Counted from the first letter of the stretch, positions 1,806 through 41,224 are shown. The stretch: DNA of 62,360 nucleotides from Candidatus Woesearchaeota archaeon (GCA_964413705.1 CAYPSK010000001.1:1-62360); one strand, 5' to 3'. Numbers and translations: made by a program. The notes: generated by a model from the letters alone, not told the origin.

Positions 1806-2073
1806 AAAAATCACCAGAAATTAAAGAAAAATAAACTTTTTCCAGAAACCTGAAAAAAAGAAAAAGTATTTAAAGAAGTTATACATTAATTAATATCCAA
1901 AATTAAGATAATAAATCAAAAAAACACAAAAAAGAGGAGAAAAAAATGCCAAAAAAGAAAAAAGCAGCCAAAAAAAAGAAGAGATAAGATCTCTGAATAA
2001 TTTATTTTTTTATTTTTTTTTATTTAATCTTTTTTCAACCTAATTCTCAATAAATTGAATATAACTAAATAAT

Positions 2074-2436
2074 TCAGAATTCTGCGACGCCGTCTTTTGT
2101 CAAGGCAACAAACTTGATTCCAACAGGCAGATTTATCAAAGCAGACATCAGTGCCATGTGCTCTTTTCCGTCTCCAGAAGCTAAGCTCAGGGCAACTTCC
2201 ATGCCAGAGAACTTATCTTGTAGTTTTTTCTTCAAATCATCTATTACTTCAAGAATTGGCCTGTCAAAATTTGTTTTGATTATTGTTGCATTCTTTGCAA
2301 AATCAAATTCTCCTATTTTAGAAGCTGCAAATTCAGAACATACAAGAAATATCTTTTCCCACTGCCCTTTATTTATTATGCCTGCGACTTGACCCCAAGT
2401 TCCTTTTCCAGTCGACATCAATGATACAAATTCCAT
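2074..2436 (-). CDS. Hypothetical small alpha/beta protein
   Basis: A 120-aa ORF with non-repetitive composition, divergent from the 2503 gene. No motif I can name. The + strand ORF 2114..2392 is its shadow. Confidence 0.4.
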   Translation of the reverse strand: MEFVSLMSTGKGTWGQVAGIINKGQWEKIFLVCSEFAASKIGEFDFAKNATIIKTNFDRPILEVIDDLKKKLQDKFSGMEVALSLASGDGKEHMALMSALINLPVGIKFVALTKDGVAEF

Positions 2437-2502
2437 GAAAAAGATAATAATATAAAGTTTATAAGTATTATTAATCTAAAATAGATACTACTTATAATTA
2501 AA

Positions 2503-2946
2503 ATGAAAGAAACCCCTTTGTCTGAAATAACTCTAAGGAAATATGAAAAACCCTATGAGATGAATCAAAGAGAACTTGTCAAGAAGATATGCCTCTCCCT
2601 TGGACTTTTACAACCCGGGGATTCAAGAGACATTGCTGTTGATGTTCTTCTAGTCCTTTTAGATGCAAAAAAAGAGAAAAAAGAACTTGATTCTAATCAG
2701 ATTAAACAACTTGCAATAAAATCACGAGAAAAAGCAAATCTCGAGCTTAAGGGCATAGCTGAATCAAACATAAGAAGGCAATTGAAGAAGCTCCGCGATT
2801 TATTCATTATCGAGAAGCAGAATAATCTCTACAAAATAACAGAGTTCTCCAATCTAAACGAACTTTTTGAGAAGAAGATTCAGAATTTCTATCTTCCTGA
2901 GATTTTAGACAGGGTCAAGGAATATCTCAATGCTCTTGAGAAATAA
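2503..2946 (+). CDS. Hypothetical protein, possible winged-helix DNA-binding protein
   Basis: A 147-aa ORF directly upstream of the ribosomal L1 operon. Helical, basic pattern (QPGDSRDIAVDVLLVLL ... NIRRQLKKLRDLFIIEK). The family is not recognised. Confidence 0.4.
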   Translation: MKETPLSEITLRKYEKPYEMNQRELVKKICLSLGLLQPGDSRDIAVDVLLVLLDAKKEKKELDSNQIKQLAIKSREKANLELKGIAESNIRRQLKKLRDLFIIEKQNNLYKITEFSNLNELFEKKIQNFYLPEILDRVKEYLNALEK

Positions 2947-3039
2947 ATCTAAAATTCAAAGCATAATCTTTAAAAACCCAGAAAACAAAGAATTATATCC
3001 ACTAATACTACGTTTCTTAGCGTAGGAGGATGCAGAAAA

Positions 3040-3672
3040 ATGAATTTCAAACAAGCCTTAATCGAACTTAGAAGTGTGTCTGAAAAACGTGATTTTGATC
3101 AGACCCTAGACTTAGTCATAAATCTAAAAAGCTTTGATACTCAGAAAGAATCAGTCAATACCTTTGTTATTTTGCCGCATGCTTATAAGAAAAAAAGCAT
3201 AGCTGCATTCTTAGATTCTATAAAAAAATCTGAACTATTGACAAGAATCTTTACAAAAGATGAACTTGATAAGATACTGCCAAAAGAAATGAAGAAATTC
3301 GCAAAAAAGCAGGATTTTTTTATCTCTTCAGCTAAACTCATGCCCATTGTTGCTTCAAAATTCGGGAAAATCCTTGGCTCAGCAGGAAAAATGCCAGATC
3401 CAAAGATAGGTTGTGTTCTCATGCAAGAATCTGAGCAGAATCTAAAAGAGGCTGTAGAAAAGCTTCAAAAAACAGTCAAGATAAGGGCAAAAGAAAGAAG
3501 CCTAAAAATCCCCCTAGGTAAAGAATCTATGTCAGACGAGCACCTAATTGAAAACCTAGACAAGACATTTAAGACAATAGTGATGGCCTTGCCAAAAAAA
3601 GAATTTAATATCAGAGACACCCTAATCAAATTCACAATGTCTAAATCAATTAAAGTCAAGCTTGAAAAATAA
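3040..3672 (+). CDS. rpl1: 50S ribosomal protein L1 (uL1)
   Basis: N-terminal pattern ...KRDFDQTLDLVINLK...TFVILPH and its size (210 aa) fit uL1. It is first in an L1-P0-P1 gene order typical of archaea. GGAGG lies just upstream. Confidence 0.85.
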   Translation: MNFKQALIELRSVSEKRDFDQTLDLVINLKSFDTQKESVNTFVILPHAYKKKSIAAFLDSIKKSELLTRIFTKDELDKILPKEMKKFAKKQDFFISSAKLMPIVASKFGKILGSAGKMPDPKIGCVLMQESEQNLKEAVEKLQKTVKIRAKERSLKIPLGKESMSDEHLIENLDKTFKTIVMALPKKEFNIRDTLIKFTMSKSIKVKLEK

Positions 3673-3719
3673 ACTCTCTAAGACACATCTATATCAATAA
3701 ATAAAAAATCAAAAGCAAA

Positions 3720-3751
3720 CCAGCCAGGCCAAAAGGCACAATTGTGGCTGG
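3720..3751. repeat. Copy 1 of a 30-33 nt imperfect palindrome (CAGCCA-GGCC-AAAAGGCACAA-TTGTGGCTG)
   Basis: Outer arms CCAGCCA/TGGCTGG, inner GCC-AAAA-GGC. It is nearly identical (28 of 30 nt plus 3 indel positions) to the reverse complement of 6908..6940. Confidence 0.7.
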
Positions 3752-4619
3752 AAAATTAAAAAACTTACTCCAAAAAATATACAATAAAATGGCAGAAAAG
3801 AAAAAAACCAAGAGAGAAAAACAAGTTCCAGAAAGAAAACAGAATATCGTAAAAGAACTAGTTGACCTTATGCAAAAGAACCGGACAACTATGATTGCAT
3901 CTATTGAAGGGGTTCCATCTTACCAGTATCAAAAGATAAAAAAAGCACTAAGTGGAAAAGCATCAATAAAATTTGTCAAGAAGAACTTAGTTTTAATGGC
4001 AATAGACAAATCAAAAGAATTAGAACATTTAAGGAATAAAGTAGATAAGAATTTTGCAGTTCTTTTTTCACAATTAGGTCCTTTTGAACTAGCTGCAATC
4101 TTGGCAGATTTAAAAAGCCAGACAAAAGTTAAGCCAGGCCAAATTCCAGATAAGGATATTGTTCTTGAACCAGAAACAACAGACATCATGGCAGGTCCAG
4201 CTCTTGCAGAGTTCACAAACGCAAAGATAAAAGTCGGCGTTAATCAAGGAAAAATCGCAATCAAAGAAACATTCATAATTCAAGCAAATCACCCAGTTCC
4301 AGCAGAAGTCGCTTTAGTTCTTGAAAGGCTTGAGTTAAAACCCCTAACAGTAGGAATAAAACCTCTTGCTGCAATTGACCTTAAAGAACATAAACTCTAT
4401 GACAAAATAAAGGTAGACAAAGAAGAAGCGACAAAACTTATCTCAATTTGTGCTCATGAAGCGATGAATCTTGCAATAAACGCGAATTATATTTGCAAAG
4501 AAACAATAAACATGCTATTGGCCAAAGCAAACATGCACTCTTTAGCAATATCACAATTGCTAAATCAAAATGCTCCTCAGCCAGAATCACAAACTACTCC
4601 AAGTGCACCAAGCGCATGA
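3744..4619 (+). CDS. rplP0: 50S ribosomal protein L10 / acidic ribosomal protein P0 (uL10)
   Basis: Sits between L1 and L12(P1). N-terminal uL10-like region (KQNIVKELVDLMQKNRTTMIASIEGVPSYQYQKIKK). The likely true start is the ATG at 3789 (276 aa). It lacks the usual acidic C-terminal tail. Confidence 0.8.
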   Translation: MAGKLKNLLQKIYNKMAEKKKTKREKQVPERKQNIVKELVDLMQKNRTTMIASIEGVPSYQYQKIKKALSGKASIKFVKKNLVLMAIDKSKELEHLRNKVDKNFAVLFSQLGPFELAAILADLKSQTKVKPGQIPDKDIVLEPETTDIMAGPALAEFTNAKIKVGVNQGKIAIKETFIIQANHPVPAEVALVLERLELKPLTVGIKPLAAIDLKEHKLYDKIKVDKEEATKLISICAHEAMNLAINANYICKETINMLLAKANMHSLAISQLLNQNAPQPESQTTPSAPSA

Positions 4620-4696
4620 ATATAGATAAAGCACACAAAAAAATAAATTAATACCTATCAAAAAATAAAAATACTAAATAAAATCAAAAAAATAAA

Positions 4697-4978
4697 ATGG
4701 AATACATATACGCAGCTCTGTTGCTTAACAAACTAGGCAAAGAGATTACAGAAGAAAACATAAAAGCAGTTGTCAAAGCAACTGGAACAGACCCAGATGA
4801 ATCACAAGTCAAGTCACTTGTAGCCTCATTGAAGGGCGTAGATATACAAAAAGCGATTTCAGAAACAGCAGTAATGCCAGCTGCCCAAGCTACTCAAGGA
4901 GCAGCTAAGCCAGCAGAAAAGAAAGAAGAGCACAAAGAAGAAGAAGCAGCAGAAGGTTTATCTGCTTTATTCGGATAA
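4697..4978 (+). CDS. rpl12: 50S ribosomal stalk protein L12 / aP1
   Basis: [11 protein letters not shown]-terminus, an Ala/Lys/Glu hinge and the conserved C-terminal tail [13 protein letters not shown]. Confidence 0.85.
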
Positions 4979-5017
4979 ACATAAAACAAAGAACAGCGAA
5001 TGCAGTATTTACTTAGT

Positions 5018-5527
5018 CTACTTTCTAAAAATCGCTTTGACATCACTGTAAACAGGGATTTCTCTTATTCTAAAAACCTTAATGCTCAGAACCCATATCA
5101 AAAACACAAAAACTACGCTTAGAGCATACCAAAACACTAAATGAGCAACATCAAACAAACCTGATTGATTTACAAGTAATAAAGTCATCAAGAAGATTCT
5201 TACCACATTCACCACCAAGAAAACCGCGCTTGTGAATAAAAAAAGCAGAATTCTCTTCCAAGTTCCTATTAACCTTGTTGAAAGGTTTAAAAAAAGCAGT
5301 AAGAAATAAGCAATTCCTGCAACACAAGCATCAATAATCTCAATAGAATATCCCTTAAACAAGATAAAATTGCCACTCATCTGTGCCTGATAGAAAATCC
5401 TTATTAATCCATAACTCAAATAAGTAGTGACTGGCCTTAAAATAATATAAAACCAAGGCAGAGCAAAAATAGCCAAGATTATCAGAGCATACCTTATAAT
5501 CATTAACCAAATTCCCTGTTTTTCCAT
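5018..5527 (-). CDS. Exosortase/archaeosortase family protein (putative)
   Basis: A polytopic 169-aa membrane protein. It has the three family signature positions in order: Cys (IIDACVAGIAY), Arg (VVNVVRIF) and His (DVAHLVFWY). Confidence 0.5.
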   Translation of the reverse strand: MEKQGIWLMIIRYALIILAIFALPWFYIILRPVTTYLSYGLIRIFYQAQMSGNFILFKGYSIEIIDACVAGIAYFLLLFLNLSTRLIGTWKRILLFLFTSAVFLVVNVVRIFLMTLLLVNQSGLFDVAHLVFWYALSVVFVFLIWVLSIKVFRIREIPVYSDVKAIFRK

Positions 5528-5576
5528 TTCACAGATAAGAACGATTTATTTAAATACTATATGATTTAACTTAATC

Positions 5577-6245
5577 ATGCCAAAAACAAAAGAAAAGAAA
5601 AGCAAAACTTCGAATAAAAGCATTAGCAAGAATGGAATAATCTTTTTTGTGCTTATTGCCCTCTTTGTCCTAGCCCTGATATTTGATAATTCGCTTTTTG
5701 TCCTAATCCAACAATTTAGGATAAGCCTAAATCTCCCATTTAATTTTGACTTTATAGAAAGCTACTTTTTCTATGTAATTATTTTTGTTCTAAGCATGGT
5801 GTTTATTCTTCTAGATAATAAAGTCAAAAACAAGAAGAAAAACATATTCAGATATATAATTGGGATGGTTATGTCTGTCATCATCATGTTAATTTTAAAA
5901 TATACTGTCTCGAGACCAAGACCAATTCCCTCTCAAAGCAATTTCTTAGTAGAAGAAAAATCATTCCCCTCAGGACACACCACTTTCACATTCTCAACAC
6001 TCTCATTCTTAAAAAATTGGCTAGGCATAATCTGGCTCATCCTCTCAATAATTGTGGCCCTAGAAAGGGTCTGGATAGGGGCACATTTTCCAAGTGATGT
6101 CATTGCCGCCATAATACTAGGGTATTTCATTCCTATCCTCACCACAAAGATTATCAATAAGATAAGATTAAAAAATAATCAAAATAATCGGGCAAGAAGA
6201 AGTGTAAAAAAAAATAAAACAAGAAAATCAAAGACCAAAAAATGA
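5577..6245 (+). CDS. PAP2-family polyprenyl/lipid phosphate phosphatase
   Basis: All three acid-phosphatase motifs are present: KYTVSRPRP, PSGH and HFPSDV. Multi-TM with basic termini. Confidence 0.75.
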   Translation: MPKTKEKKSKTSNKSISKNGIIFFVLIALFVLALIFDNSLFVLIQQFRISLNLPFNFDFIESYFFYVIIFVLSMVFILLDNKVKNKKKNIFRYIIGMVMSVIIMLILKYTVSRPRPIPSQSNFLVEEKSFPSGHTTFTFSTLSFLKNWLGIIWLILSIIVALERVWIGAHFPSDVIAAIILGYFIPILTTKIINKIRLKNNQNNRARRSVKKNKTRKSKTKK

Positions 6246-6841
6246 GCACGCCCGAAATCACAAGGAAGGTTCTCCATATAATCTTCGGTATATTAATTCT
6301 AGTACTAGCCCTTTTATTTGAAAAAGGGGATTTTGTAAGGCTCTTGTTCATACTGCTTCTTCTTTGCATACTTTTAACACTCCTTCATCTAAAATATAAT
6401 ATTAAACCAATAGCTTGGATTTCTAAAGAAGAAGAAAAAATATTTCCACTTAAAGGTCTTTTATTTTTCATTGCCGGAGCAGGTCTAACAATCCTTATTT
6501 TTGATAAAAATATAGCCTTGGCGGCAATAACAATACTAACATTTGGGGATTCAATTAGTTCATTTGCAAATAAATTTGGTTCAAAATATGGAATTAATCC
6601 TTTTAAAAATTTCAAGAGTTTATTTGGAACACTCTGTGGTATAATTATCGGATTTCTATTTGCCCTAACTTTCATTGATCCTCTCTCAGCCTTAGTTGGC
6701 TCATTCTTCGGCATGATTACAGAAGCAGTAGCTATAAAGTTGGGGGAGTCAGATGCAGATGACAACATAATCGTGCCTCTAGCTGCTGCAACAGCAATGT
6801 ACCTCTTATCAAGACTACCAACCCTCGCTTCGATTGTATAA
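6242..6841 (+). CDS. CTP-dependent polyprenol (dolichol) kinase / cytidylyltransferase-like membrane protein
   Basis: Polytopic membrane protein with FGDSISSFANKFGSKYG and KSLFGTLCG. These resemble the GD..A..G and K(S/T)xEG motifs of the DolK/CdsA superfamily. ATGA overlap with the PAP2 gene. Confidence 0.4.
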   Translation: MSTPEITRKVLHIIFGILILVLALLFEKGDFVRLLFILLLLCILLTLLHLKYNIKPIAWISKEEEKIFPLKGLLFFIAGAGLTILIFDKNIALAAITILTFGDSISSFANKFGSKYGINPFKNFKSLFGTLCGIIIGFLFALTFIDPLSALVGSFFGMITEAVAIKLGESDADDNIIVPLAAATAMYLLSRLPTLASIV

Positions 6842-25190: not shown

Positions 25191-26102
25191 ATGGCAAGCA
25201 CCAATGCACACCCAGAATATCTCGCAGCTGAAAAAAAATTCCACTTAGCCCAATCAAATGAAGAAAGACTTGAATGCTTAAAAGAAATGATGAGCTACAT
25301 GCCCCAACACAAGGGCGCAGAACGATTAAGAGCAGATTTAAGGTCGAGATATAAGAGATTAAAAGAAAAACTTGAAATTCAGAAAAAGAAGAAAAAAGCA
25401 TCAAGCAAGCCAGGCATTAAAAAAGAGGGCATCCAAGCAGTTCTGATAGGCTTGACAAATTCAGGAAAATCCTCTCTTCTCTCTATTTTAACAAATGCCA
25501 AGCCAAAAATCAGCAACCTCGACTATACCACTCAAAACCCAATCATTGGCATGCTTGATTTAGAAGGAATAAAATTTCAGATAATAGATATGCCCGCAAT
25601 AAATTATGAAACTTTTGATCAAGGAACAACGAATGTTGCAGATATTTTATTGATTATAATCACCGACTTGAAAGACCTAGAAAAAATATATCCCTATCTA
25701 AATAAGACAAGCGGCAAAAGAATAATTATCTTCAATAAATCAGATTTATTAAATGCGCAGGAAAAAAGAAAAATACAAGCGAATCTCCAGAGCAAAAGAT
25801 ATAATTTCTGCCTCCTTTCTTGCAAAACACACGAGGGCATAGATATTCTAAAAAATAAGCTCATTGAAAATTCAAATGTCCTGAGGATATATACTAAACA
25901 ACCAGGCAAACAACCAGATGAAGACCCTGTCCTCATGAAACCTTCATCAACAGTTGAAAATTTAGCAAAAAAAGTCTTTCACTCTGATATAAAAATAAAA
26001 GAAACAAGGATAACTGGCCCCTCAAGTAAGTTTCCTAATCAAACAATCGGCCTAAAACATGTCTTAAAAGACAAAGACATTGTAGAATTCCATACTGGGT
26101 AA
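25191..26102 (+). CDS. DRG/Obg-like GTP-binding protein with C-terminal TGS-like domain
   Basis: P-loop GLTNSGKSSLL, G3-like IIDMPAI, G4-like FNKSDL, and a C-terminal RIYTKQPGK...PV.M..SSTV segment typical of DRG TGS domains. Confidence 0.65.
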   Translation: MASTNAHPEYLAAEKKFHLAQSNEERLECLKEMMSYMPQHKGAERLRADLRSRYKRLKEKLEIQKKKKKASSKPGIKKEGIQAVLIGLTNSGKSSLLSILTNAKPKISNLDYTTQNPIIGMLDLEGIKFQIIDMPAINYETFDQGTTNVADILLIIITDLKDLEKIYPYLNKTSGKRIIIFNKSDLLNAQEKRKIQANLQSKRYNFCLLSCKTHEGIDILKNKLIENSNVLRIYTKQPGKQPDEDPVLMKPSSTVENLAKKVFHSDIKIKETRITGPSSKFPNQTIGLKHVLKDKDIVEFHTG

Positions 26103-26134
26103 AAATTTATGGAAAAGATAAATAAGAATCTGAA

Positions 26135-26269
26135 TTAATACGAATCCTTCGCCAATTTCAAAAGCCCAGCCCTATTCTTCTTGAATGCCCTCAAAAGAAG
26201 ATTAATTTCCTTTGCAACTGCATTCTTTAGGTCAAGAGGATGCAAAGGTTTAAATAGATTAGATAACTT
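26135..26269 (-). pseudogene. Displaced remnant of a tyrS 3' end (44 codons + stop)
   Basis: The minus-strand frame reads KLSNLFKPLHPLDLKNAVAKEINLLLRAFKKN...DSY-stop. This parallels the C-terminus of the intact tyrS at 27627..28757 (KKLHPLDLKIAIAEEIIKLLEPARKHF). No upstream catalytic part is present. Confidence 0.6.
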
Positions 26270-26271
26270 AA

Positions 26272-27615
26272 ATGAGTATGTTATATATATATCATTCCAA
26301 GCATCAAAATACAAAAAGTAGACTACTCAGAATTCAGATTCCAATAAAGATTTACGAAAAAATAAAAAATAGTTTTGTGAGTATAAAGATTAATAATGCA
26401 GAATTTTTTTATAAAATTTCTAATGAAAGAAGATTTGTTGTTCCAAAAGAATTAAAGGGGAAAATAAATTTCCAAAAAGAAAACCAGATTACAATAGAAA
26501 AACTAAAATTTATCAAAAGAACTGGAAAAAATATTGTTATAAAGAAAGAAAAACTAGACTTGCTTTCATTTATTCCCGACAAATTGCGTTCTGGAACCAA
26601 GATTAATCTTTTACTTTGGAAAAATAGTTTGATTTGTTTTTATAAAAGCCCTAAAGGAACATTAAGAAAAATAGAAATAAGAAAAGAGGTTCCTCTAGAA
26701 TTTTGTCGTCTTCTGGGTTATTACCAAGCGGAAGGAGGAAAGGAAAAGAAAATAAAAAAGAGCGGAAGACAAGTGGTTTTTACAAACACCCATATCAACT
26801 TAATTTCTGACTTTATTATTTTAAGCAAAAATTTGTTTAAAACAAATTTATGGAACGCAGAGATAAGAATTAAAAAAGCAAACAAAATGAAAGAAGCGCT
26901 TATTCAAAATATGCTAAAAAAACTAGGCATTAATAAAAAGAATATAAAAATAAGAATAGGAGATAATTTAAAAGATTTTAGTATAAGACTCTACATTTGT
27001 TCAACAATTCTTTCAGATATTATAATTAGGATTATGGAGAACATTAAGAATTATCTAATAACTGAAAATATTTTGAATAAGAAAAATAATCTAAAAATGT
27101 ATATATCTTTTATGCAAGGCTTGTTTGCAGGAGATGGAAATTATAATACCTATAAAAACAAAAAAGGCGGGGTTCACCATAGACTAATTTTCTATGAAGA
27201 AGATTACAATTATGCTCTTCAATATAAAAAATTACTCAAAAAAATAGGGATGGAAAGCAAAATAATAAAAATAAAAGATAAAAACTTGTTTATTATTAGG
27301 GCTACATTAAATTGGGATTTTTTGCTTTTGATTAAAGAATTAGGGCTATTTGATTGCCATATTCACCACAAAACATCTTTAATAGAATCTATCAAAAGAC
27401 ACAAATCCTATAGAAGCCACAAGTATCTTATTTCTATGCCTAATAAGATTGATATAAAGAAAGTACAAAAAGTAATAAAAAAAGAAAAGGTTATTTGTTA
27501 TAATTGGCTTAAAAAGATGGTTGAACGAGGAGTTATAATTAAGAGAGATGCAAATAGATGGGAGTTATCAGAAAAGGGAAAAAGAATAAAAAGGATTTTG
27601 AAAGAAATATCATAA
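26272..27615 (+). CDS. Free-standing double-motif LAGLIDADG homing-endonuclease-like protein with C-terminal winged helix
   Basis: Two LAGLIDADG motifs (FCRLLGYYQAEGG and FMQGLFAGDGNY) about 130 aa apart. An N-terminal extension of about 140 aa and a C-terminal wHTH-like tail (WLKKMVERGVIIKRDANRWELSEKGKRI). Confidence 0.75.
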   Translation: MSMLYIYHSKHQNTKSRLLRIQIPIKIYEKIKNSFVSIKINNAEFFYKISNERRFVVPKELKGKINFQKENQITIEKLKFIKRTGKNIVIKKEKLDLLSFIPDKLRSGTKINLLLWKNSLICFYKSPKGTLRKIEIRKEVPLEFCRLLGYYQAEGGKEKKIKKSGRQVVFTNTHINLISDFIILSKNLFKTNLWNAEIRIKKANKMKEALIQNMLKKLGINKKNIKIRIGDNLKDFSIRLYICSTILSDIIIRIMENIKNYLITENILNKKNNLKMYISFMQGLFAGDGNYNTYKNKKGGVHHRLIFYEEDYNYALQYKKLLKKIGMESKIIKIKDKNLFIIRATLNWDFLLLIKELGLFDCHIHHKTSLIESIKRHKSYRSHKYLISMPNKIDIKKVQKVIKKEKVICYNWLKKMVERGVIIKRDANRWELSEKGKRIKRILKEIS

Positions 27616-27626
27616 ACTCTGAAAAA

Positions 27627-28757
27627 TTATTTCGCGATTAATTTGTCAAGTTCTTCTAACATTTTTTTTGGCTTTCCACTAGCAAAATGCTTTCTTGCTG
27701 GCTCGAGTAACTTAATAATTTCTTCAGCAATTGCAATTTTTAAATCAAGAGGGTGCAATTTCTTGTTTAAGAAATCTTTTTCTAAATTAGAATAGCTTTT
27801 ATAAGCAATTTTTCCTCCAAACTTTTCTGGGCGATTTATTTCTAATTTTGAATTTTCATTACCAAAAACTAATGACTTTGCCCAATCAAGAACCGGATTA
27901 AATTCTGTCTCTCCTTCTGGACAAAAAGCATTTTTAATTTTAGTTCTAATTTCTTCTTCAGAATCATGAATAAATATGCATGTTTCTGGCTTGGATTTGG
28001 ACATTTTTAAAGAAGACCATAACTCTTGTAAATTTTCTTTTGGAATTGGCCAAATACTTGGTTTTCCTAAACCAAGAATAAGATGATGGTGTACCGCAAC
28101 AGGTTTTATTTTGTTCCCTTTTTTATCTAGAAGGGGCTTAATTTTTAAATTTAAAGCAACATCTCTTGCAATAACTTGGGCTTTTCTTTGATCTAAACCA
28201 GCATGAGGCATATTTATTCCTTGTGCAAAAATATCTGCAACTTGCATCGGAGGATAAATTAATTTGGCAAAGTCAACCAACTCTCCTTCTTTCCTACCCA
28301 TAATGGTTATGCTCCTCATCATTCTTGCTAAACTGGTATTTTTACTTATGTCGATCATCGTTTGCCAATATTCATCGTTATTATGATATAGATCAGATCC
28401 TAAAACAAATTTTAGTTTTTCTGGGTCTCCACCAACACACTTAAAACTTGCTTTCAAACCTTCTTTAAAGTAACCTCCAGCAACTCTTTTTATTGTTTCC
28501 ATATCTCCCCCGAGTTTATTATTAATCCAAGAATGCCAATCTGCCAAAAACAAAGAACACTCTGTTCCAGCATCCATAAAATCTTTTACCTTAGACATGC
28601 ACATAATTCCTGTCCCTAAATGAATTTTACCAGAAATCTCAAAGCCAATATAATGCTTGAGTTTTATTCCAGATTCTAATCTTTGTTTGAGATCTTCTTC
28701 AGTCATTATCTCTGCAGTATTTCTCTTAATCAATTCAAATCTTTTTTTTATATCCAT
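27627..28757 (-). CDS. tyrS: Tyrosine--tRNA ligase (archaeal type)
   Basis: HIGH-type motif SGKIHLGTG, KMSKS motif (LKMSKSKP), and a C-terminal RPEKFGG...LHPLDLK...LEP segment as in archaeal TyrRS. Confidence 0.85.
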   Translation of the reverse strand: MDIKKRFELIKRNTAEIMTEEDLKQRLESGIKLKHYIGFEISGKIHLGTGIMCMSKVKDFMDAGTECSLFLADWHSWINNKLGGDMETIKRVAGGYFKEGLKASFKCVGGDPEKLKFVLGSDLYHNNDEYWQTMIDISKNTSLARMMRSITIMGRKEGELVDFAKLIYPPMQVADIFAQGINMPHAGLDQRKAQVIARDVALNLKIKPLLDKKGNKIKPVAVHHHLILGLGKPSIWPIPKENLQELWSSLKMSKSKPETCIFIHDSEEEIRTKIKNAFCPEGETEFNPVLDWAKSLVFGNENSKLEINRPEKFGGKIAYKSYSNLEKDFLNKKLHPLDLKIAIAEEIIKLLEPARKHFASGKPKKMLEELDKLIAK

Positions 28758-28851
28758 AAAAAAGAGAATATTTCTAAATTCTTAAATCTTCCGCCCATAT
28801 GCTTATATTCTGAATATAAATTCTCTGTCTTCACTAAGGACTATTATTAAA

Positions 28852-28885
28852 AAAGCACATTAAACACCCTAAAGCGCACAAAACC
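28852..28885 (+). repeat. Bipartite GCGCA motif, copy c (degenerate: AAAGCACATTAAACACCCTAAAGCGCACAAAA)
   Basis: The first core has degraded to GCACA; the second is GCGCA at 28874. Same orientation as the other copies. Lies in the divergent spacer between tyrS and the OB-fold gene. Confidence 0.5.
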
Positions 28886-28926
28886 TAAAACCCCTTATAT
28901 CTTTTTAATCACTAAATTTAAAATTA

Positions 28927-29313
28927 TTGATTTCTTTGGAAAATATGCCCAACCTCCCAAAAAATCCCAAAACCCTCTGCCTAATTCTCTCACTCATTGG
29001 CATCTTCATCATTGTTATTCTTGCCCAAGTTCTCGAGCCAAAACTAATCAAGATTTCTGATATAAACAAAAAAATGCTTGATGAACATGTCAAAATTCAG
29101 GGTCAAGTAGAGGATGTTCAAAAAATAAAAAGCCAAAACTATCCAAATCCAATAGTTCTCATCACCCTAAAAAATCAATCAAGTCAAATTACTGTTGTCT
29201 GGAGACAGGATATAACTCTAACTCAAAATCAAATCATCCAAGTAGTGGGAAAAGTCTCAGAATATCGAAATGAAACACAAATTGAGGCAAGCAAGATAAA
29301 AATGCTGCTTTAG
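28927..29313 (+). CDS. Membrane-anchored OB-fold (tRNA-anticodon/RPA-like) protein
   Basis: N-terminal TM (LCLILSLIGIFIIVILA), then VKIQGQVEDV...ITLKNQSSQITVVW...IQVVGKVSEYRNETQIEA, the usual OB_NA-binding pattern. The likely start is the ATG at 28945. Confidence 0.5.
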   Translation: MISLENMPNLPKNPKTLCLILSLIGIFIIVILAQVLEPKLIKISDINKKMLDEHVKIQGQVEDVQKIKSQNYPNPIVLITLKNQSSQITVVWRQDITLTQNQIIQVVGKVSEYRNETQIEASKIKMLL

Positions 29314-31841: not shown

Positions 31842-34800
31842 TTAAAAGAACTTTCCCAGTGCTTGCTGTTTCTCAGTCTGTTTTCCAAACATACTCTCTA
31901 TAGACCATCTTGCAAGATCCAAGCTCTGCTTAGTATAAGCAGGAACATCATAATTTTTTGCTAAGTTGGTCGCAGTCTCCAAATACTTCATAATTGAACC
32001 TTCGGCGATGGTAAATATAATTTTTCCTCCACAAATACTTTCATCATTCTTAATTCTTATGCATTTTCCAGATAAAGGCGGCCTTCTATAGATTTCATTG
32101 CAATCAACACACCTGAACTGCTGCTGAGTAAATTTATTAAAATTTCCTTTTATATCCCTGATAAAGTGCCTCTCAATTATTAATCTAGCAATATCTGCCT
32201 CGTCAACAGCCCTGATTTTCTGCACAAGTTCCATTTGTTTGTCTACTTTTTCATGCATGCTTGGAATTGATTTATAAGAAGAGTTTACAACACCATGATT
32301 AAAATCATCTGTGTCATGCGTGGACAGGGTATTTATCAAAGGGTCTTTGCCCTCTCTTAATCTCCTTTTCACATTATCAACTATAACTTTAGAAGAATGC
32401 TCTCCTTTTTCAGCAAGCTCATACATCTCTAGAGGATATTCAGATAATTCCAAGTCTAAAATCTGGTCATCTACTTCTCCAGGCCTGATTCTTGCATTTA
32501 AAACAAGAGGCGCATCTTGCGTACCCCCTCTATGCGCAGGCAAGAATTTTCTAGAGAAATTTAAAAGAACATCCAAAAGCAGCATCACTGCGACTTCATC
32601 CCCATCACATTGCCTGGTAAGTATTGAATTAGCAACAATTAAATGATTTTTATTATCCACGTTTAGGCAATAACTCTCTTTCTCTTCACTTCGATTGATG
32701 GAAACAATAGAATCATGCACAAAATCAGAATCTTGCTCTATTTTCATCCCCAATTTTTTCTTTTTTAAACATATATTCAAAATCTTATTTTTCTTATTTG
32801 ATAAAAATCCAATTTTTTTGAATTTATCGACAAAATCCGAACCAATAATCAATTTTATTATCTTAAATTTTGGGATTTTCCTTCCTTTTTTAAAATAAAA
32901 TGTTCTTACTCTTGGTCCTGGTTCTTTTTTATATTCATATCTTTTAACAAAAATCCCATATCTTAAAAGACAGAATTCCAAATCTGCTAAAAGACCCTCG
33001 CTAACACTATCGCATGAGACTCTTCTATCAGATGCGCTTACACTTCCGTCGCCTTCAAAATAACCTCTTAAAACATATGCTAATCTTTCCAATCCTAAAT
33101 TCAAAAATAAAGGGGGAATTCTTTTGTTTTTTGCATTGCTCCCTGTTTCTAAAATCTTTGTAAAAAACCAGTATAAAATCTTTGATGAAAACGTAACTCT
33201 ATCTTTTTTTCTTTCAGAAGGCACTAATCCAAATGATTTTTTCATAATCTTTTTGACAAAATTCCTTATTTTAATATCATTGGAAGCAATATAAACCTGA
33301 TTTAATCCTTTTTTTCCTTCAATACATCTTGAATAGCCTTCAGCGACATACAATCCAATAACCTCTAAAAGTTCATCGCTAATCTTTAGGATAATTGGAA
33401 CCTCAATATTATCTCTTTTAACCGCCAATTTGCCTTCGCAACATATCTTCTCTAACATATCCTTATTTAACTTTAAAATAAAATTTATTGGATAGCTGCT
33501 TCTTATATTAAAATTTTGAAATTGTCTTTTTGTAATTCCCAATTCTCTTAAAATTTTATCACGCTCTACTATTTTTAATTGTTTAATTATACCATTCACA
33601 TTTCGGACCATAACTTTTTCTTCTTTTAGTTCTTCTAATAAATTAATCTCTTTTATATCCTTAGATTCTATCTCTATTTTTTTAGGAAGAGGCAACCTAT
33701 CTCCTATTTTCAACTCTTCTGCCCTTACAATCTCCCCCTCAACTAAGAATTTATGACTCCCTGTAACACTTACCTTCTTCCCAAGATGAGTCTTAATTTC
33801 AATAAGGGGCATTTTTAAATGTTTTGTAAAATTATTTATTTTCACTTCTGAGATATTTTTATTAAGACCAATTGTTTTAAAGCCTTCAACTTTTTTTTCT
33901 TTTGTCCCATACTTATCAACAATCTTATCTGGATTCAAGTTTTCAACAAATTCCCCAACTTTGACTATCCTCCAAATTCCATTTTCTTTCAAAGGAAGAT
34001 AAGTATCATAATCAAAACAATCTCTTCTAACTGCTGCGTGCAAATAAGGAGAAGCAATTATGCCCTGAACTTTTGAAAAGCCTATGATTCTTGTGACAAC
34101 ACCTGCACAATTATGTGGCGCCATTGTAACAGTCAACTTTCCAATCAAATCCTCTTTTGTTCTGACATTATAAAACTCTTTCTGCCCATAGAGCTTAACA
34201 AGCAAAGCATCAATGAATTTAGTAGCATTGATAAACATGTGATCTGCTTTCTCATCATCAGAATCAGGACAAGAAGGAAGGACAATATCGTGCGGCTTAA
34301 GTTCTAGAATCTGATTATCATTCTCGAGCTTTTTGCCCCCAATATCAACATTATATCCTAACTCTCTCAGCTTCTCAATGCTTGTACCAATTTCTTTTGG
34401 CTTGAAATGAGTTATAGGCAATTCAGTCACATCATATCTTATAGTTCCATCTTTATTGACATGCAACCCAAAATTAGCTCTTAAGATTCCTTTTATGATA
34501 TTCTCTGGGATATGTGATTCAGAACTTGTCCCCCTAACCCCCTTAACAATTTTTAGAATATTCTGGATATCTGCTTTTTTCATAGCGATTTTATAATAAT
34601 CCCCAATATTGATTCTTCTTTCCATATAGGGTTTCATTTTCCCATGAACATTACATCCCTCGGAAAAAGATTTTTTTCCGCATAAATTACAGTAATTCAT
34701 CTTCCTGGCTTTTGAACCACACGTTTCGCAGATAAAATAAACAGTTTCTTTATTGCAAGTATCACAAAAATAAATAGGAAAATCTGCCCTTACACTTCCT

Positions 34801-36764
34801 TTTTCAATTGCTGCCTGAAAACTCCTTAACTTCCCCCCTTCTTCACCAACTGGAAAAAGGACATGTGGTGAACCTTTCAATTCTCTTGGCTTAGCTTTCT
34901 CAGGCCTCCCCATTCTCGCACCTATAAATGTTCCTGCTTTATCTTTTATCTTGAACTTAGATAAATTATTTATCAGAGCCAGTACTTTTGTCTCTTTTTC
35001 TTTTATATTCTCTATTTTTCTAGAATAACTCATAAATTTATCATCAAAATCTTTCTTTTCTATCCCTAAATTTATCAAAATAGCTCTGCTCTCTTCCTTA
35101 CTTAGAACAACATTCTCAATAGTAACATCATGCTCAACACCTAGTATCTCCAAAGCTCTTTTGCCTACCTTGAATTTGTCTTTCTCAACCCGATTATAAG
35201 GAAGAATCAACTTATCATCCCCAAGAACTCCAGATTTTATCCATTCAATTAAACTAAAAAAATCATCAACATTTATCTGGCTCCAGTAGAATATATACTT
35301 TGGATGAAGTGGGACTTTAAAGGTATTTGATAAAGAAACTGCCTGGTCAAGTGAGACATGATATTTTTCTACGTTCAAACTACTAAATTTCTCTTTCTTT
35401 TTTTCCTCATCCTCTTCTCCAATAGCTGCTGCTTTCTTTAACTCAAGCTCCCACCACTCTTCAACATAACCTGGCTTAAGCAGTTCATAGTTCCTGTTCA
35501 TTACATCCCCTAAAGAATATAAAATATCCCCAATATAGATGATTTCTTCAACATCTTTATAGAACTTTTTAGCCTCCTCAAAATCACTTAATTTCCTTGT
35601 GCTTCCATTCTTTAGCTTAACAATTGGCCCGTCAATTGAATCGCAAGAAGTTATAACACATCCTTTTGTCGGTTTCTCTGTTTTAAGCTGAGTTCCTGTT
35701 GATAAAAAACAATTTGATATGGCCATTGTCGCAGGATGTATGGATGTTGCAGAAAATCCTGAGACTCTTGATTTGCCATATCTAAATCTAAAACCTCCGG
35801 ATCTTGATGGATGAGAAAAAACAGGTCTTCCTGCAACAAGATCTTTAATATAGGTTGGAGAAGTGTCTGTCGTTCCTTTTTCTCTTTTCTTATGAATAAC
35901 AAGATACTCGTCTAAAAAATTCCATCCTGTTGATTTAAAGCCCTTTGCTTGAACCCCTTTTAACAGTCTTAATCCTTTTTGCGCTTTCTGAGCAAGGCCC
36001 TCTGAAAAAATCAAACACATTCCTCCCCGGATAAAATTTGTCTCTACTCTTGGCAAGTCTTTAAAGTTTGAGACCTCTCTTTTTTCAGTTGGCTCTCCGG
36101 CAATCTGTATAGGAAGGTTTTTTGCTAAGAATAAGGCCTCTTCCTCTGTCGGCAGATACTGCAAATTCGTGACTCTCTCATGATAATCATATATTTCTGT
36201 AACATATCTTTTAATTTCAAGCTCATCAGGATCATATTTAGCAAATCCAAACTTCTCTCTCAAATAATCAATTAACATCAAGACTACGCATGAGGCGGTT
36301 GTTCCTGCACTTCTTATTGGTCCGGAAAAATAAGCTTTAAAATATTCTTTTCCATCCCTAGTTTTCTCTATTTTAAGCGCTGTGAATCCTTCAATCGGAC
36401 TTGATACAACACCAAGAGTAGTATAAGCAAATCCGACCCTGATTCCAGCCTCTATTGCTTGTAATAAAGACTCAAACTTGCAGAATTTTTCCTTTGCAAT
36501 CTCTTCTGCAATCTTAAATGAGACTGCAGTATCCAAAGGCCCATACTCTTTTTCAAGTTCAAGTATCCGATTCACAATCTTTTTGTCATTAAGCTGGGGG
36601 TATATTGTTGAAATTAGTCCAAGGGTTTTTTCAGCAAGATTCGTTGCAAGTAAAACCTCTACTTTATCCATTGGGTCAAATCCTTTCTCTCTTGCAGCCC
36701 CTGCTACAGCATATTCGTGTTTAACATTTCCCTCAAGTTCATGAAAGTATTTTTCCATTTCCAT
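31842..36764 (-). CDS. polC: DNA polymerase II (PolD) large subunit DP2, interrupted in frame by one intein
   Basis: Zn-finger clusters (CDTCNKETVYFICETCG ... CNLCG) and the conserved ...APHNCAGV... and RRD|CDGDE catalytic region. 1640 aa including the 470-aa intein, giving a 1170-aa extein. Immediately downstream of DP1. Confidence 0.9.
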   Translation of the reverse strand: MEMEKYFHELEGNVKHEYAVAGAAREKGFDPMDKVEVLLATNLAEKTLGLISTIYPQLNDKKIVNRILELEKEYGPLDTAVSFKIAEEIAKEKFCKFESLLQAIEAGIRVGFAYTTLGVVSSPIEGFTALKIEKTRDGKEYFKAYFSGPIRSAGTTASCVVLMLIDYLREKFGFAKYDPDELEIKRYVTEIYDYHERVTNLQYLPTEEEALFLAKNLPIQIAGEPTEKREVSNFKDLPRVETNFIRGGMCLIFSEGLAQKAQKGLRLLKGVQAKGFKSTGWNFLDEYLVIHKKREKGTTDTSPTYIKDLVAGRPVFSHPSRSGGFRFRYGKSRVSGFSATSIHPATMAISNCFLSTGTQLKTEKPTKGCVITSCDSIDGPIVKLKNGSTRKLSDFEEAKKFYKDVEEIIYIGDILYSLGDVMNRNYELLKPGYVEEWWELELKKAAAIGEEDEEKKKEKFSSLNVEKYHVSLDQAVSLSNTFKVPLHPKYIFYWSQINVDDFFSLIEWIKSGVLGDDKLILPYNRVEKDKFKVGKRALEILGVEHDVTIENVVLSKEESRAILINLGIEKKDFDDKFMSYSRKIENIKEKETKVLALINNLSKFKIKDKAGTFIGARMGRPEKAKPRELKGSPHVLFPVGEEGGKLRSFQAAIEKGSVRADFPIYFCDTCNKETVYFICETCGSKARKMNYCNLCGKKSFSEGCNVHGKMKPYMERRINIGDYYKIAMKKADIQNILKIVKGVRGTSSESHIPENIIKGILRANFGLHVNKDGTIRYDVTELPITHFKPKEIGTSIEKLRELGYNVDIGGKKLENDNQILELKPHDIVLPSCPDSDDEKADHMFINATKFIDALLVKLYGQKEFYNVRTKEDLIGKLTVTMAPHNCAGVVTRIIGFSKVQGIIASPYLHAAVRRDCFDYDTYLPLKENGIWRIVKVGEFVENLNPDKIVDKYGTKEKKVEGFKTIGLNKNISEVKINNFTKHLKMPLIEIKTHLGKKVSVTGSHKFLVEGEIVRAEELKIGDRLPLPKKIEIESKDIKEINLLEELKEEKVMVRNVNGIIKQLKIVERDKILRELGITKRQFQNFNIRSSYPINFILKLNKDMLEKICCEGKLAVKRDNIEVPIILKISDELLEVIGLYVAEGYSRCIEGKKGLNQVYIASNDIKIRNFVKKIMKKSFGLVPSERKKDRVTFSSKILYWFFTKILETGSNAKNKRIPPLFLNLGLERLAYVLRGYFEGDGSVSASDRRVSCDSVSEGLLADLEFCLLRYGIFVKRYEYKKEPGPRVRTFYFKKGRKIPKFKIIKLIIGSDFVDKFKKIGFLSNKKNKILNICLKKKKLGMKIEQDSDFVHDSIVSINRSEEKESYCLNVDNKNHLIVANSILTRQCDGDEVAVMLLLDVLLNFSRKFLPAHRGGTQDAPLVLNARIRPGEVDDQILDLELSEYPLEMYELAEKGEHSSKVIVDNVKRRLREGKDPLINTLSTHDTDDFNHGVVNSSYKSIPSMHEKVDKQMELVQKIRAVDEADIARLIIERHFIRDIKGNFNKFTQQQFRCVDCNEIYRRPPLSGKCIRIKNDESICGGKIIFTIAEGSIMKYLETATNLAKNYDVPAYTKQSLDLARWSIESMFGKQTEKQQALGKFF
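32610..34019 (-). mobile_element. Intein (470 aa) with LAGLIDADG homing-endonuclease domain inside DP2
   Basis: The N-extein ends ...HAAVRRD. The intein starts CFDYDTYLPL (block A), has VTGSHKF (block B TxxH), LAGLIDADG motifs VIGLYVAEGYS and YVLRGYFEGDGS, and ends ...NHLIVANSILTRQ. It is followed by +1 Cys of CDGDEVAV. Coordinates were derived by back-translation on the minus strand and are in frame. Confidence 0.85.
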
Positions 36765-41064: not shown

Positions 41065-41128
41065 TTCTTAAATATCATAACCTAAAAGTATAAATATAAT
41101 TTTTTTCTATATTCTTTTATAACCCCCT

Positions 41129-41222
41129 GCCCAGATGGGACAAAGGTACTCCGACGGTCTCGAAAGAATCCAAGATAACCGTTTTCCGCAAGGATATCCA
41201 GGTTCGATTCCTGGTCTGGGCG
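41129..41222 (+). tRNA. tRNA-Ser (anticodon CGA) with a putative 12-nt anticodon-loop intron
   Basis: Acceptor GCCCAGA/TCTGGGC with discriminator G. Long variable arm (TCC-GCAA-GGA), T arm CCAGG-TTCGATT-CCTGG and anticodon stem ACGGT/ACCGT. That stem encloses 19 nt, which is a 7-nt loop CTCGAA.A plus about 12 nt inserted after position 37. Confidence 0.7.
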
Positions 41223-41224
41223 TT

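Follow-up and report, generated by a model that had tools for sequence, protein, structure and literature searches.

In the 62,360-nucleotide stretch of archaeal DNA analyzed here (the window), a free-standing gene for a LAGLIDADG protein lies between an intact tyrS and a convergent GTPase gene, and on its far side lies a second C-terminal fragment of tyrosyl-tRNA synthetase (TyrRS), which we call A2. We consider it likely that the product is a putative DPANN homing endonuclease specialised for the 3' end of tyrS, that its gene inserted after the resident tyrS, and that A2 is the relic of an earlier host. Every feature named in the original prediction for this locus was found where it had been placed (Table 1). 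The gap between the stop of the fragment and that of the GTPase gene is also real, its length being 32 nt and not the 33 nt claimed.

Table 1. Features of the tyrS-endonuclease-GTPase locus in window coordinates.
Feature	Position	Strand	Remarks
tyrS (TyrRS, 376 aa)	27627..28757	-	Pfam tRNA-synt_1b, E 1.3e-38; intact, resident gene of the lineage
Last ~17 codons of tyrS (..SGKPKKMLEELDKLIAK, stop)	27627..27678	-	Short donor-like patch; candidate co-conversion tract adjoining the endonuclease gene
Spacer, 11 nt	27616..27626		Between the convergent stops of tyrS and the endonuclease gene; read from the sequence
Putative LAGLIDADG endonuclease gene, free-standing, 447 aa	26272..27615	+	Pfam LAGLIDADG_3
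TTTAAATA box	26249..26256	+	Likely archaeal TATA element of the endonuclease promoter; promoter role inferred
A2, second TyrRS C-terminal fragment	26135..26287	-	TyrRS residues ~319 to stop; predicted relic, non-functional
Spacer, 32 nt	26103..26134		A2 stop to GTPase stop; holds the right-hand insertion junction
GTPase gene	25191..26102	+	MMR_HSR1 and TGS domains (Pfam); convergent with tyrS; far edge of the insertion

The history of the locus is most directly read from empty alleles. In two relatives, L001 and L052, whose TyrRS proteins are 89-90% identical in amino acid sequence to that of the window, the stops of tyrS and the GTPase gene are 0-1 nt apart and there is no endonuclease gene. 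Because these relatives have the two genes stop to stop, we conclude that the window carries an insertion of ~1.5 kb; the proposal that a LAGLIDADG-bearing segment of this size had entered the tyrS 3' end thus stands, and the insertion-less alleles that were to be sought by alignment with relatives exist. The inserted segment extends from ~26103-26135 to 27626, with a putatively converted patch extending a further ~50 nt within tyrS, up to about 27678. Its GC content is 26.2% (25.5% in the endonuclease gene), compared with 33.6% for the window. In a second pair of filled and empty loci, L047 and L048, homology stops exactly after the tyrS stop. In the lineages with empty alleles the other genes are only ~70-78% identical. 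All eight contigs that encode exactly this TyrRS also have the endonuclease gene, and no presence/absence polymorphism within the population was seen.

On the right-hand side of the insertion, the 32-nt spacer has no homology to the empty alleles of L001 and L052, and no similarity to L010, L025 and L026, three other loci with the endonuclease gene, was found beyond about 26160. Since this junction is without homology, a clean two-sided homing event into the window lineage is no more than a candidate. We considered a right-hand crossover within the GTPase gene and rejected it, as affinity never switches along that gene and no recombination signal is present in it. Its product is 74-75% identical between the window and L001 or L052, close to the 78% that separates L001 from L052, and on this basis we regard the gene as native to the clade.

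Judging from profile matches and the predicted fold, the inserted gene encodes a monomeric I-DmoI-like LAGLIDADG protein, a putative homing endonuclease. It matches Pfam LAGLIDADG_3 in two stretches (41.8 bits, the cut-off being 22.5), and its layout comprises an AbrB-like N-terminus (~aa 1-95), an I-DmoI-like double-LAGLIDADG core (~aa 140-360) and a winged-helix-like C-terminus (~aa 365-447). The two LAGLIDADG motifs, LLGYYQAEGGK and MQGLFAGDGNY, contain E154 and D288, which are invariant together with their flanking glycines in 15 homologues of 33-66% identity. Profile matches in the PDB include 2glw over aa 10-75 (E 1.6e-4) and PI-PfuI (1dq3, E 2.9e-4); at the C-terminal domain, HTH_45 is matched below cut-off (E 0.012). 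The AF2 model (pLDDT 90.5, pTM 0.87) has the alpha-beta-beta-alpha-beta-beta-alpha core fold, and in a Foldseek comparison with the PDB the best match is I-DmoI, at E about 1e-5, TM 0.55-0.69 on the target and 16-18% identity. The top 26 entries are all I-DmoI, as are most of the first 40, and intein endonucleases and I-OnuI come next. The features of LAGLIDADG family membership found here are a family match, two acidic-ended motifs, the core fold and mobility at one site. The endonuclease of a PolD intein in the same window was considered as a possible relative and shows no relation.

The family is small, with 18 protein clusters among 5.8 billion proteins, and is closely associated with tyrS. 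At ~22 distinct loci in several DPANN lineages the endonuclease gene is convergent with tyrS, the two stops being -47 to +50 nt apart; overall, the two genes are found paired in convergent, tandem and divergent arrangements. Across 153 locus pairs, endonuclease identity and TyrRS identity are uncorrelated (Spearman 0.10, p 0.23). The window and L047, for example, share 80% of their TyrRS residues and 37% of their endonuclease residues, and the corresponding values are 35% and 57% for L012 and 44% and 65% for L025. This lack of correlation indicates that the endonuclease moves between tyrS lineages. Mobility is thus marked by empty sites (L001, L052 and L048), by a constant site in ~22 loci, and by relatedness uncoupled from that of the hosts. 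Differences between filled and empty alleles, including L047 and L048, were also searched for a hint of the cleavage site, and no diagnostic block was found.

How much of the in-frame tyrS end came with the element could be addressed by comparing tails. Between -180 and -60 nt the intact end is 82% identical in nucleotides to L001, with which it has in common the clade-specific peptide NLEKDFLNKKLHPLDLK.AIAEEI.KLLEPARKHFA; the form FLNKKLHPLDLK.AIAEEI.KLLEPARKHFA is likewise common to the window and L001 and occurs nearly identically in P0002 and P0003. By these affinities the intact end is resident from -175 to -55 nt. Further toward the stop, codon alignments show a change of pattern and place a recombination breakpoint ~50 nt ahead of the stop. 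Sites that are L001-like outnumber those like L010 and L050 by 97 to 29 before tyrS nt 1080, compared with 1 to 11 after it (Fisher 3.8e-6, uncorrected for the choice of breakpoint). When L052 is added, the counts are 72 to 12 before and 0 to 5 after (p 1.5e-4), and all five of the latter sites lie at nt 1080-1087. The stretch GGAAAGCC..GACAAATTAAT matches L010 at 37 of 41 positions, as counted on the alignment, and the last ~10 nt of tyrS look L001-like again. On this comparison, only a block of ~8 nt in the region of the breakpoint is firmly donor-like, with the final 50 nt as the upper limit of the donor-like part. The terminal patch may be a co-conversion tract; the signal on this left side amounts to 5-11 clustered sites (p 1.5e-4 to 3.8e-6), and none is found on the right side, in the GTPase gene. 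Thus, of the proposal that the element brought its own tyrS 3' end, the part that holds is a small patch at the extreme 3' end, which looks imported, while the -175 to -55 nt region is resident. We also considered the SGKPKK tail as a marker of endonuclease-carrying alleles and set it aside, since L050 has this tail without an endonuclease gene, a finding that also counts against the co-conversion reading of the patch.

A2 itself is a genuine TyrRS C-terminus, as had been claimed for 26135..26269. Its minus-strand frame, which ends at 26135, reads ...KPLHPLDLKNAVAKEINLLLRAFKKNRAGLLKLAKDSY followed by a stop. In a single BLASTP comparison it has 17/30 identities with the window's own TyrRS (E 2e-6), and the profile search proposed in the original prediction, run with a TyrRS-tail profile over 11,438 six-frame segments from the window and 46 loci, finds it at E 3.1e-5, beyond chance. 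Homology detected by tblastn extends to 26287 and corresponds to TyrRS residues 319-359. A Pfam search of the 59-aa ORF of A2 gave no match because the ORF is too short. The two tyrS ends are about 61-73% identical in nucleotides, in agreement with an estimate by eye of two-thirds.

The fragment is not, however, the displaced resident end that it had been taken for. An HMM built from the L010, L025 and L026 fragments only finds A2 at 41 bits (E 8e-11), compared with 23 bits for the window's intact end and 24 bits for that of L001, both over the DLKNAVAEEI core only; the A2-family HMM also finds fragments beside the endonuclease start in L016, L027 and L028. From end to end and with its stop included, A2 groups with the fragments of L010, L025, L026, L027 and L028. 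The tail of A2, ..LAKDSY before the stop, is of the short type seen in L021 (..LYKKAYS before the stop) and not that of the window's own Pacearchaeota-like clade, and it matches real short-type TyrRS proteins of L021, L018 and L020. Nucleotide identity between the window and L025 begins at about 26160, reaches 62-91% over 26205..26295 and continues into the endonuclease gene, despite an identity of only 44% between the TyrRS proteins of the two hosts. Because the fragment family spans unrelated hosts and the tail matches short-type TyrRS, A2 is best read as the relic of an earlier host's tyrS. By these relationships it is a former host's tyrS 3' end that travels with the endonuclease gene and is non-functional as tyrS. 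Two other candidate readings of the fragment were rejected: a conserved small protein, since stops interrupt the frame in L010, L025 and L026, and a remnant of a resident tyrS replaced by whole-gene co-conversion, since the fragments in four unrelated hosts are mutually homologous. The polarity of the window, with the foreign end on the far side, recurs in an independent case, L033. No event that we could reconstruct accounts for the placement of an earlier host's gene end beyond the endonuclease gene, on its far (5') side.

A2 may nevertheless owe its persistence to its position. It shares DNA with the opening codons of the endonuclease gene, which lies on the opposite strand, and it contains the TTTAAATA box, antisense to ..LFKP.. 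codons. The box is invariant in the window, L010, L025 and L026. It precedes the first ATG by 16-23 nt and the universally conserved second ATG (26278), from which the ORF is 445 aa long, by 22-29 nt. The conserved box is probably the endonuclease promoter.

These observations suggest the following scheme. The enzyme would cut endonuclease-less tyrS alleles within the conserved 3'-terminal ~150 bp, the candidate cut sites being the stop-codon junction and the HPxDLKNAVAE codons. Repair of the break from an endonuclease-carrying copy would then copy the endonuclease gene in and convert some of the flanking tyrS. In the window lineage a segment of ~1.5 kb would in this way have gone between the once-abutting tyrS and GTPase stops, with tyrS staying intact and essentially resident throughout. 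A2 would be the fossil end of a short-type tyrS that probably arose once, via one-sided or illegitimate repair of the kind that the original prediction imagined. Because it sits directly upstream of the endonuclease start and holds the TATA-like box, it would have been dragged along since.

A bolder version of this scheme, which we put forward only tentatively, is that an I-DmoI-like lineage fused to AbrB-like and winged-helix-like domains has lasted across DPANN lineages by hopping between the tyrS alleles of cellular chromosomes, as an archaeal form of intronless homing, with the relic end as a working part. If so, the relic end would be the source of the promoter and might in addition serve as a portable homology arm, or as an operator or decoy copy of the target half-site, and this could explain entry into tyrS loci with unrelated downstream neighbours.

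We weighed the preferred scheme against other accounts of the duplicated end. The arrangement first envisaged makes the in-frame end (27627..~27770) the foreign one and takes 26135..26269 for the resident end, pushed aside; it has the gene order of fungal mitochondrial elements (PMC3630166), that is, gene, endonuclease gene and C-terminal duplicate. It also draws on the donor-like patch at the tyrS terminus, and in several loci the fragments have their 5' boundary close to the HPxDLK codons, which would fit a cut and insertion point there. It would have ..KKNRAGLLKLAKDSY and a stop as the functional tyrS end among the close kin of this genome. It is contradicted at the window locus by the clade-native in-frame end and by the grouping of A2, with its tail from a different TyrRS subfamily; there is no remnant of a native tail between A2 and the GTPase gene, and the reversed polarity recurs in L033. 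We therefore regard it as very unlikely here. A related candidate, Campbell-type single crossover of a circle carrying the endonuclease gene and one tyrS end, was rejected: it predicts a native tail abutting the GTPase stop, and what follows the far-side copy is an A2-family tail and then the unrelated 32-nt spacer. Also unlikely is a variant of homing with cleavage at the HPxDLKNAVAE codons, in which the fragment does work for the element: renewed in part whenever homing occurs, it would act as a portable right-hand homology arm and, as the right half of the target site, would allow entry into any tyrS, regardless of the gene downstream. Fragments from separate endonuclease clades (window, L016 and L033) indeed start within a few codons of HPxDLK and retain the archetypal DLKNAVA.E, and intact ends in carriers deviate from it (KIAIAEE in the window, KNSVSES in L010, KNATITY in L025 and KENVSRE in L033). 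Nothing is conserved past the fragment, which on this argument would mark the right edge of the element. Yet the empty alleles of L001 (KMAIAEE) and L052 (KCAIGEE) deviate too, the endonuclease-carrying L026 and L047 keep the archetype, and the fragment is conserved no more than the endonuclease gene itself. Under this variant, moreover, the in-frame end should be of donor type and the distal part of the fragment of resident type, and the window shows the opposite for both.

The remaining accounts dispense with mobility. The protein might be a domesticated, WhiA-like LAGLIDADG regulator of tyrS or of convergent transcription, with the fragment as its operator. Such a role would suit the constancy with which the gene accompanies tyrS in very divergent archaea and in three geometries, as well as the two accessory DNA-binding domains and a weak match to Pfam LAGLIDADG_WhiA (E 0.038, below cut-off). 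WhiA has lost its catalytic acidic residues, whereas those of both motifs are invariant here. In addition, the family is patchy and rare (its 18 clusters compare with >8,000 related TyrRS matches), the gene is missing in the closest relatives, its phylogeny is uncoupled from that of the host and its GC content is low, all of which make the regulator quite unlikely. Least probable by far, in our view, is an old tandem duplication of the tyrS 3' end in situ in a common ancestor, with the endonuclease gene settling between the two copies and the whole passed on vertically, or else chance similarity. The copies are in direct orientation and diverged (about 61-73% in nucleotides), and AT-rich sequence inflates chance matches; but the profile E-values exclude chance, the empty alleles sit inside the clade, the same fragment family accompanies related endonuclease genes in hosts with TyrRS 44% identical, and the tail type of the fragment is foreign to the window's clade.

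The homing scheme that we favour has partial counterparts in known systems. The original prediction held a replacement gene end to be unusual for a free-standing LAGLIDADG gene, whereas such ends are well known in fungal mitochondria (PMC3630166, PMC6279837). There mORFs occur in Allomyces macrogynus atp6 and in Glomus atp6, atp9, cox2 and nad3, and their foreign in-frame end and displaced native copy have been shown (PMC3630166); in Endoconidiophora, C-terminal duplications of cob and atp6 flank LAGLIDADG and GIY-YIG ORFs (PMC6279837). As in the window, an essential gene has a LAGLIDADG ORF at its 3' end; two diverged copies of the gene's C-terminal coding region, one of them foreign as shown against close relatives, flank that ORF, and the element is present or absent among relatives. 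In contrast, the polarity in the window is reversed, the in-frame end being resident and the downstream fragment foreign, and the insertion follows the stop codon and does not lie inside the coding region. Fungal mORFs are on the strand of the host gene and often in phase with it, whereas the endonuclease gene of the window is on the opposite strand, convergent and unfused. The window also differs in its host, an aminoacyl-tRNA synthetase gene on an archaeal chromosome, and in that fragments of the A2 type accompany the endonuclease gene from host to host.

Intronless homing in phages, of the T4 seg/mob type, resembles the present case in that conserved genes flank the endonuclease gene on both sides, relatives lack it at that site, and the target is presumed to be in the conserved neighbour gene. 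The short flanking tract of the window, which may be co-converted, would be a further parallel. The phage examples are GIY-YIG or HNH enzymes, whereas the window enzyme is LAGLIDADG, putative by sequence, resides in a cellular DPANN genome and carries a relic of the target gene. I-DmoI (PDB 1b24, 2vs8) is likewise monomeric, with two LAGLIDADG motifs per chain, each with a catalytic acidic residue. It is encoded in an rRNA intron and targets rDNA; the window gene is free-standing, its candidate target is a protein-coding gene, and its product adds the AbrB-like (~95 aa) and winged-helix-like (~80 aa) domains. The integrative elements of tRNA genes, an analogy offered with the original prediction, share with the window a direct repeat of the gene 3' end and a gene that stays functional. 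Unlike them, the window has no integrase, its repeat copies are diverged and not att-like, and the native tail predicted by a Campbell-type event is absent.

Both behaviours are thus known elsewhere, gene-end-targeting endonuclease ORFs with duplicates from fungal mitochondria and free-standing ones between conserved genes from phages; our literature searches turned up neither of them described on an archaeal chromosome or at an aminoacyl-tRNA synthetase gene. With ~22 natural insertions of one family at one site and matched empty alleles, the locus offers a testable system, suited to studying the persistence of such genes in tiny DPANN genomes and their passage between very different hosts with an essential gene kept intact. 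For annotation, it cautions that a gene-end duplicate beside a homing endonuclease may be cargo from an earlier host that carries the promoter, and not a displaced end. In practical terms, the family may provide a new scaffold for monomeric meganucleases, one that comes with two accessory domains predicted to bind DNA.

The tyrS locus of the window differs from that of its closest relatives by a discrete insertion. Among the loci compared from related contigs (L numbers), L001 and L052 (TyrRS clusters P0004 and P0003; 89-90% identical to the window's TyrRS) carry the same tyrS and GTPase genes in convergent orientation with no endonuclease gene between them; their stop codons lie 0 and 1 nt apart, and therefore about 1,524 nt (26103..27626) are extra in the window. 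The GC content of this insert is 26.2%, against 33.6% for the whole window. Comparison with related genomes has thus supplied alleles without the insertion, and the original prediction that an element carrying the endonuclease gene had entered here was right. In a second pair of filled and empty loci (with and without the endonuclease gene at tyrS), L047 and L048, homology is lost exactly past the tyrS stop codon, and the L047 endonuclease stop codon overlaps the final tyrS codons. The empty L001 shares its ENA sample of origin with a filled contig, L004, of a different lineage (identity 74-78% for the GTPase, 69% for TctA and 73% for PolD). All eight contigs with exactly this TyrRS contain the endonuclease gene, and no presence/absence polymorphism within the population was seen among them.

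Names on TyrRS relatives indicate a low-GC DPANN host of the Pacearchaeota/Nanoarchaeota type. Relatives differ in what lies between tyrS and the convergent GTPase gene: the interval holds a Fic gene, a NUDIX gene, a PemK toxin-antitoxin pair or small ORFs without annotation. An MgtC-family gene lies 5' of tyrS in L001 and L052 and was not found in the window by tblastn; for the neighbouring OB-fold protein, identity between the window and L001 is only 46%. Of the 11 nt that follow the tyrS stop codon in the window (TTTTTCAGAGT, read in the sense of tyrS), 8 match the reverse complement of the last GTPase codons of L001 (TTAGTCAGTGT), which could reflect a scrap of a donor GTPase end or a chance likeness in AT-rich DNA.

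Coordinates of features in the window and in compared loci.
Contig	Feature	Position	Strand or arrangement	Remark
Window	GTPase gene	25191..26102	+	
Window	Spacer, GTPase/A2			32 nt
Window	A2, second TyrRS C-terminal fragment	26135..26287	-	open frame, stop at 26135; reads ..KPLHPLDLKNAVAKEINLLLRAFKKNRAGLLKLAKDSY*
Window	TTTAAATA box	26249..26256		inside A2
Window	Endonuclease ORF	26272..27615	+	447 aa; LAGLIDADG_3 domain, 41.8 bits (cut-off 22.5)
Window	Spacer, endonuclease/tyrS	27616..27626		11 nt
Window	tyrS	27627..28757	-	intact, 376 aa
Window	Region compared for MgtC-family gene	28758..29313		
Window	PolD large-subunit (DP2) gene	within 31857..36629		
Window	PolD intein	32631..34016	-	462 aa
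Window	tRNA-Phe (GAA) call	41128..41223	+	96 nt
L001	MgtC-family gene region	5006..5793		
L052	MgtC-family gene region	66..539		
L050	tyrS/GTPase gap	5291..6241		variable
L047	tyrS/GTPase gap	6351..6836		variable
L048	tyrS/GTPase gap	1851..2436		variable
L010	tyrS/GTPase gap	2164..2575		variable
L014	tyrS/GTPase gap	2861..3850		variable
L022/L037	tyrS, then endonuclease gene	2726..5092	tandem, same strand	
L036	tyrS, then endonuclease gene	2659..5125	tandem, same strand	
L020	Endonuclease gene and tyrS	2710..5314	divergent	

The features read from the sequence in the original prediction, including a second TyrRS C-terminus, were confirmed. This fragment, A2, adjoins the endonuclease start codon and overlaps the first endonuclease codons on the opposite strand. 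It matches TyrRS residues 319-359, as tblastn confirms, with 17 of 30 identities (BLASTP, E 2e-6), and among 11,438 six-frame segments a TyrRS-tail profile recovers it at E 3.1e-5.

The origin of A2 can be judged from similar fragments on the far side of other endonuclease genes. Its BLOSUM62 scores are 82, 63 and 61 with those of L025, L026 and L010, and 28-42 with any intact end. A profile built solely from these three fragments matches A2 over its full length (41 bits, E 8e-11), whereas the intact ends of the window and L001 reach 23-24 bits, in the DLKNAVAEEI core only; the same profile finds further fragments directly 5' of the endonuclease start in L027, L028 and L016. Nucleotide identity between the window and L025 leaves background at about 26160 and is 62-91% over 26205..26295, extending on into the endonuclease gene; the tyrS genes of the two hosts match only at background level. 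Fragment and endonuclease gene are thus linked. The tail of the fragment family, ..KKDKKAxELAKIAY(S)*, is the one in which genuine short-type TyrRS proteins (L021, L018, L020) naturally end, and that of L021, ..KIRKDKKLKELYKKAYS*, scores 43.5 bits with the fragment profile. This grouping with endonuclease-linked fragments, together with the short-type tail, argues that A2 comes, on sequence comparison, from the 3' end of another tyrS lineage and is co-inherited with the endonuclease gene. In other words, the earlier proposal that the resident end had been displaced to the far side of the element is wrong, and A2 is a relic that the element carried. L033, from a distant endonuclease clade, is an independent case with the same polarity: its intact end matches relatives that are 85-88% identical, and the tail of its far-side fragment is of a type found in more distant TyrRS.

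The companion proposal, that the element brought a replacement tyrS end, survives in small part. Most of the intact end (A1) is resident: between positions -180 and -60 relative to the stop it is 82% identical to L001 in nucleotides, and it shares with L001 the clade-specific peptide NLEKDFLNKKLHPLDLK.AIAEEI.KLLEPARKHFA, and only its extreme tail deviates. In a codon alignment, informative sites up to nt 1079 are 97 L001-like versus 29 L010/L050-like, and beyond it 1 versus 11 (Fisher 3.8e-6, with no correction for where the breakpoint was placed); with L052 included the counts are 72/12 before and 0/5 after (p 1.5e-4), the five sites all falling in nt 1080-1087. Over the tail stretch GGAAAGCC..GACAAATTAAT, 37 of 41 positions, counted on the alignment, equal L010. 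The same tail type occurs in L050, an allele without the endonuclease gene. We read these sites, on thin evidence, as a putative short conversion tract beside the endonuclease gene, and a small replaced tail is therefore plausible.

Homologues of the endonuclease are rare, with only 18 protein clusters (33-100% identity) in a collection of 5.8 billion proteins. Context look-ups and two collection scans yielded about 30 distinct loci, whose contigs bear Woese-, Pace-, Nano- and Aenigmarchaeota labels. The endonuclease gene and tyrS are convergent in about 22 distinct loci, with stop-to-stop distances of -47 to +50 nt; tyrS followed in tandem by the endonuclease gene is seen under three locus ids, of which two denote one contig, and a divergent arrangement under one. 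Across 153 locus pairs endonuclease and TyrRS identities are uncorrelated (Spearman 0.10, p 0.23): the window has 80% TyrRS and 37% endonuclease identity with L047, 35% and 57% with L012, and 44% and 65% with L025. The endonuclease gene therefore moves horizontally between tyrS lineages, landing always at tyrS, and is specific for the tyrS 3' end. In the tandem loci the protein match ends near query residue 372-381, and these endonucleases may lack the C-terminal domain; L022 is labelled a Methanosarcinales MAG. Source records assign TyrRS clusters P0120 and P0166, which are of this DPANN type, to Caldisericia or Acidobacteriota; these are probably mis-binned contigs.

Sequence and model together predict that the protein is a monomeric LAGLIDADG nuclease, that it is active, and that it has two accessory DNA-binding domains. 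The acidic residues of both motifs, E154 (LLGYYQAEGGK) and D288 (MQGLFAGDGNY), are invariant. An AlphaFold model (pLDDT 90.5) has I-DmoI as the top Foldseek match of its core (E ~1e-5; TM up to 0.69 on target), with intein endonucleases next. Residues 10-75 match 2glw, a 92-aa archaeal protein (E 1.6e-4) whose fold is of the AbrB/SpoVT type, and one homologue carries the JGI name PrlF-type antitoxin; the last ~90 residues give a weak winged-helix match (HTH_45, E 0.012). An intein containing a LAGLIDADG endonuclease of its own interrupts the PolD gene of the window (Pfam Intein_splicing 1.6e-16, LAGLIDADG_3 1.5e-17); it is not related to the tyrS-linked enzyme (BLASTP E 0.04). The tRNA-Phe call comes from ARAGORN and is not reported by Rfam at gathering threshold; the tRNA may contain an intron, or the call may be false.

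We suggest that the enzyme would cut tyrS alleles without the endonuclease gene in their conserved 3'-terminal region, and that a filled copy would then serve as repair template, so that the gene is copied in and a short flank converted. One candidate target is the stop-codon junction, where the insertion point is fixed and from which the breakpoint lies ~50 nt upstream; another is the HPxDLKNAVAE codons of the archetypal tyrS 3' end (L048 type, ..HPMDLKNAVAEE..IITR*), where every fragment has its 5' boundary and several filled alleles are non-archetypal. A simple Campbell-type model fails for the window. No homology was seen at the window's right-hand junction and the GTPase gene is native; therefore entry into this lineage probably involved one homologous and one illegitimate join.

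A gene, an endonuclease ORF and a C-terminal duplicate also occur together in Allomyces atp6 and Glomus atp6, atp9, cox2 and nad3 (PMC3630166), and in Endoconidiophora cob and atp6 (PMC6279837). In these fungal mitochondrial mobile ORF elements (mORFs), however, the foreign copy is the in-frame one and the native copy lies downstream, the reverse of the window, where the endonuclease gene is moreover convergent and downstream of the host-gene stop. An event of the mORF type, in line with the original prediction but in an earlier short-type host, may well have been what first placed a host's gene end beyond the endonuclease gene. The logic of homing without introns in phages (PMC2988022, PMC2790892) resembles that of the window, with a free-standing gene between conserved genes and flank conversion, which is putative in the window; the enzyme class and the host are different. 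Our literature search found no prior description of archaeal free-standing LAGLIDADG genes linked to tyrS or other aminoacyl-tRNA synthetase genes. The underlying principle is already known from organelles and phages; as a natural system the family is tidy, and it may provide a new meganuclease scaffold.

A2 may have been retained for its position at the endonuclease start and for a putative promoter within it. Its distal part decays, with in-frame stops in L010, L025 and L026 and variable tails. The TTTAAATA box is invariant in the window and these three loci and lies 22-29 nt 5' of the universally conserved second endonuclease ATG. An archaeal TATA box serving a leaderless transcript has this spacing, and the TTTAAATA box is a putative promoter element of the endonuclease gene.
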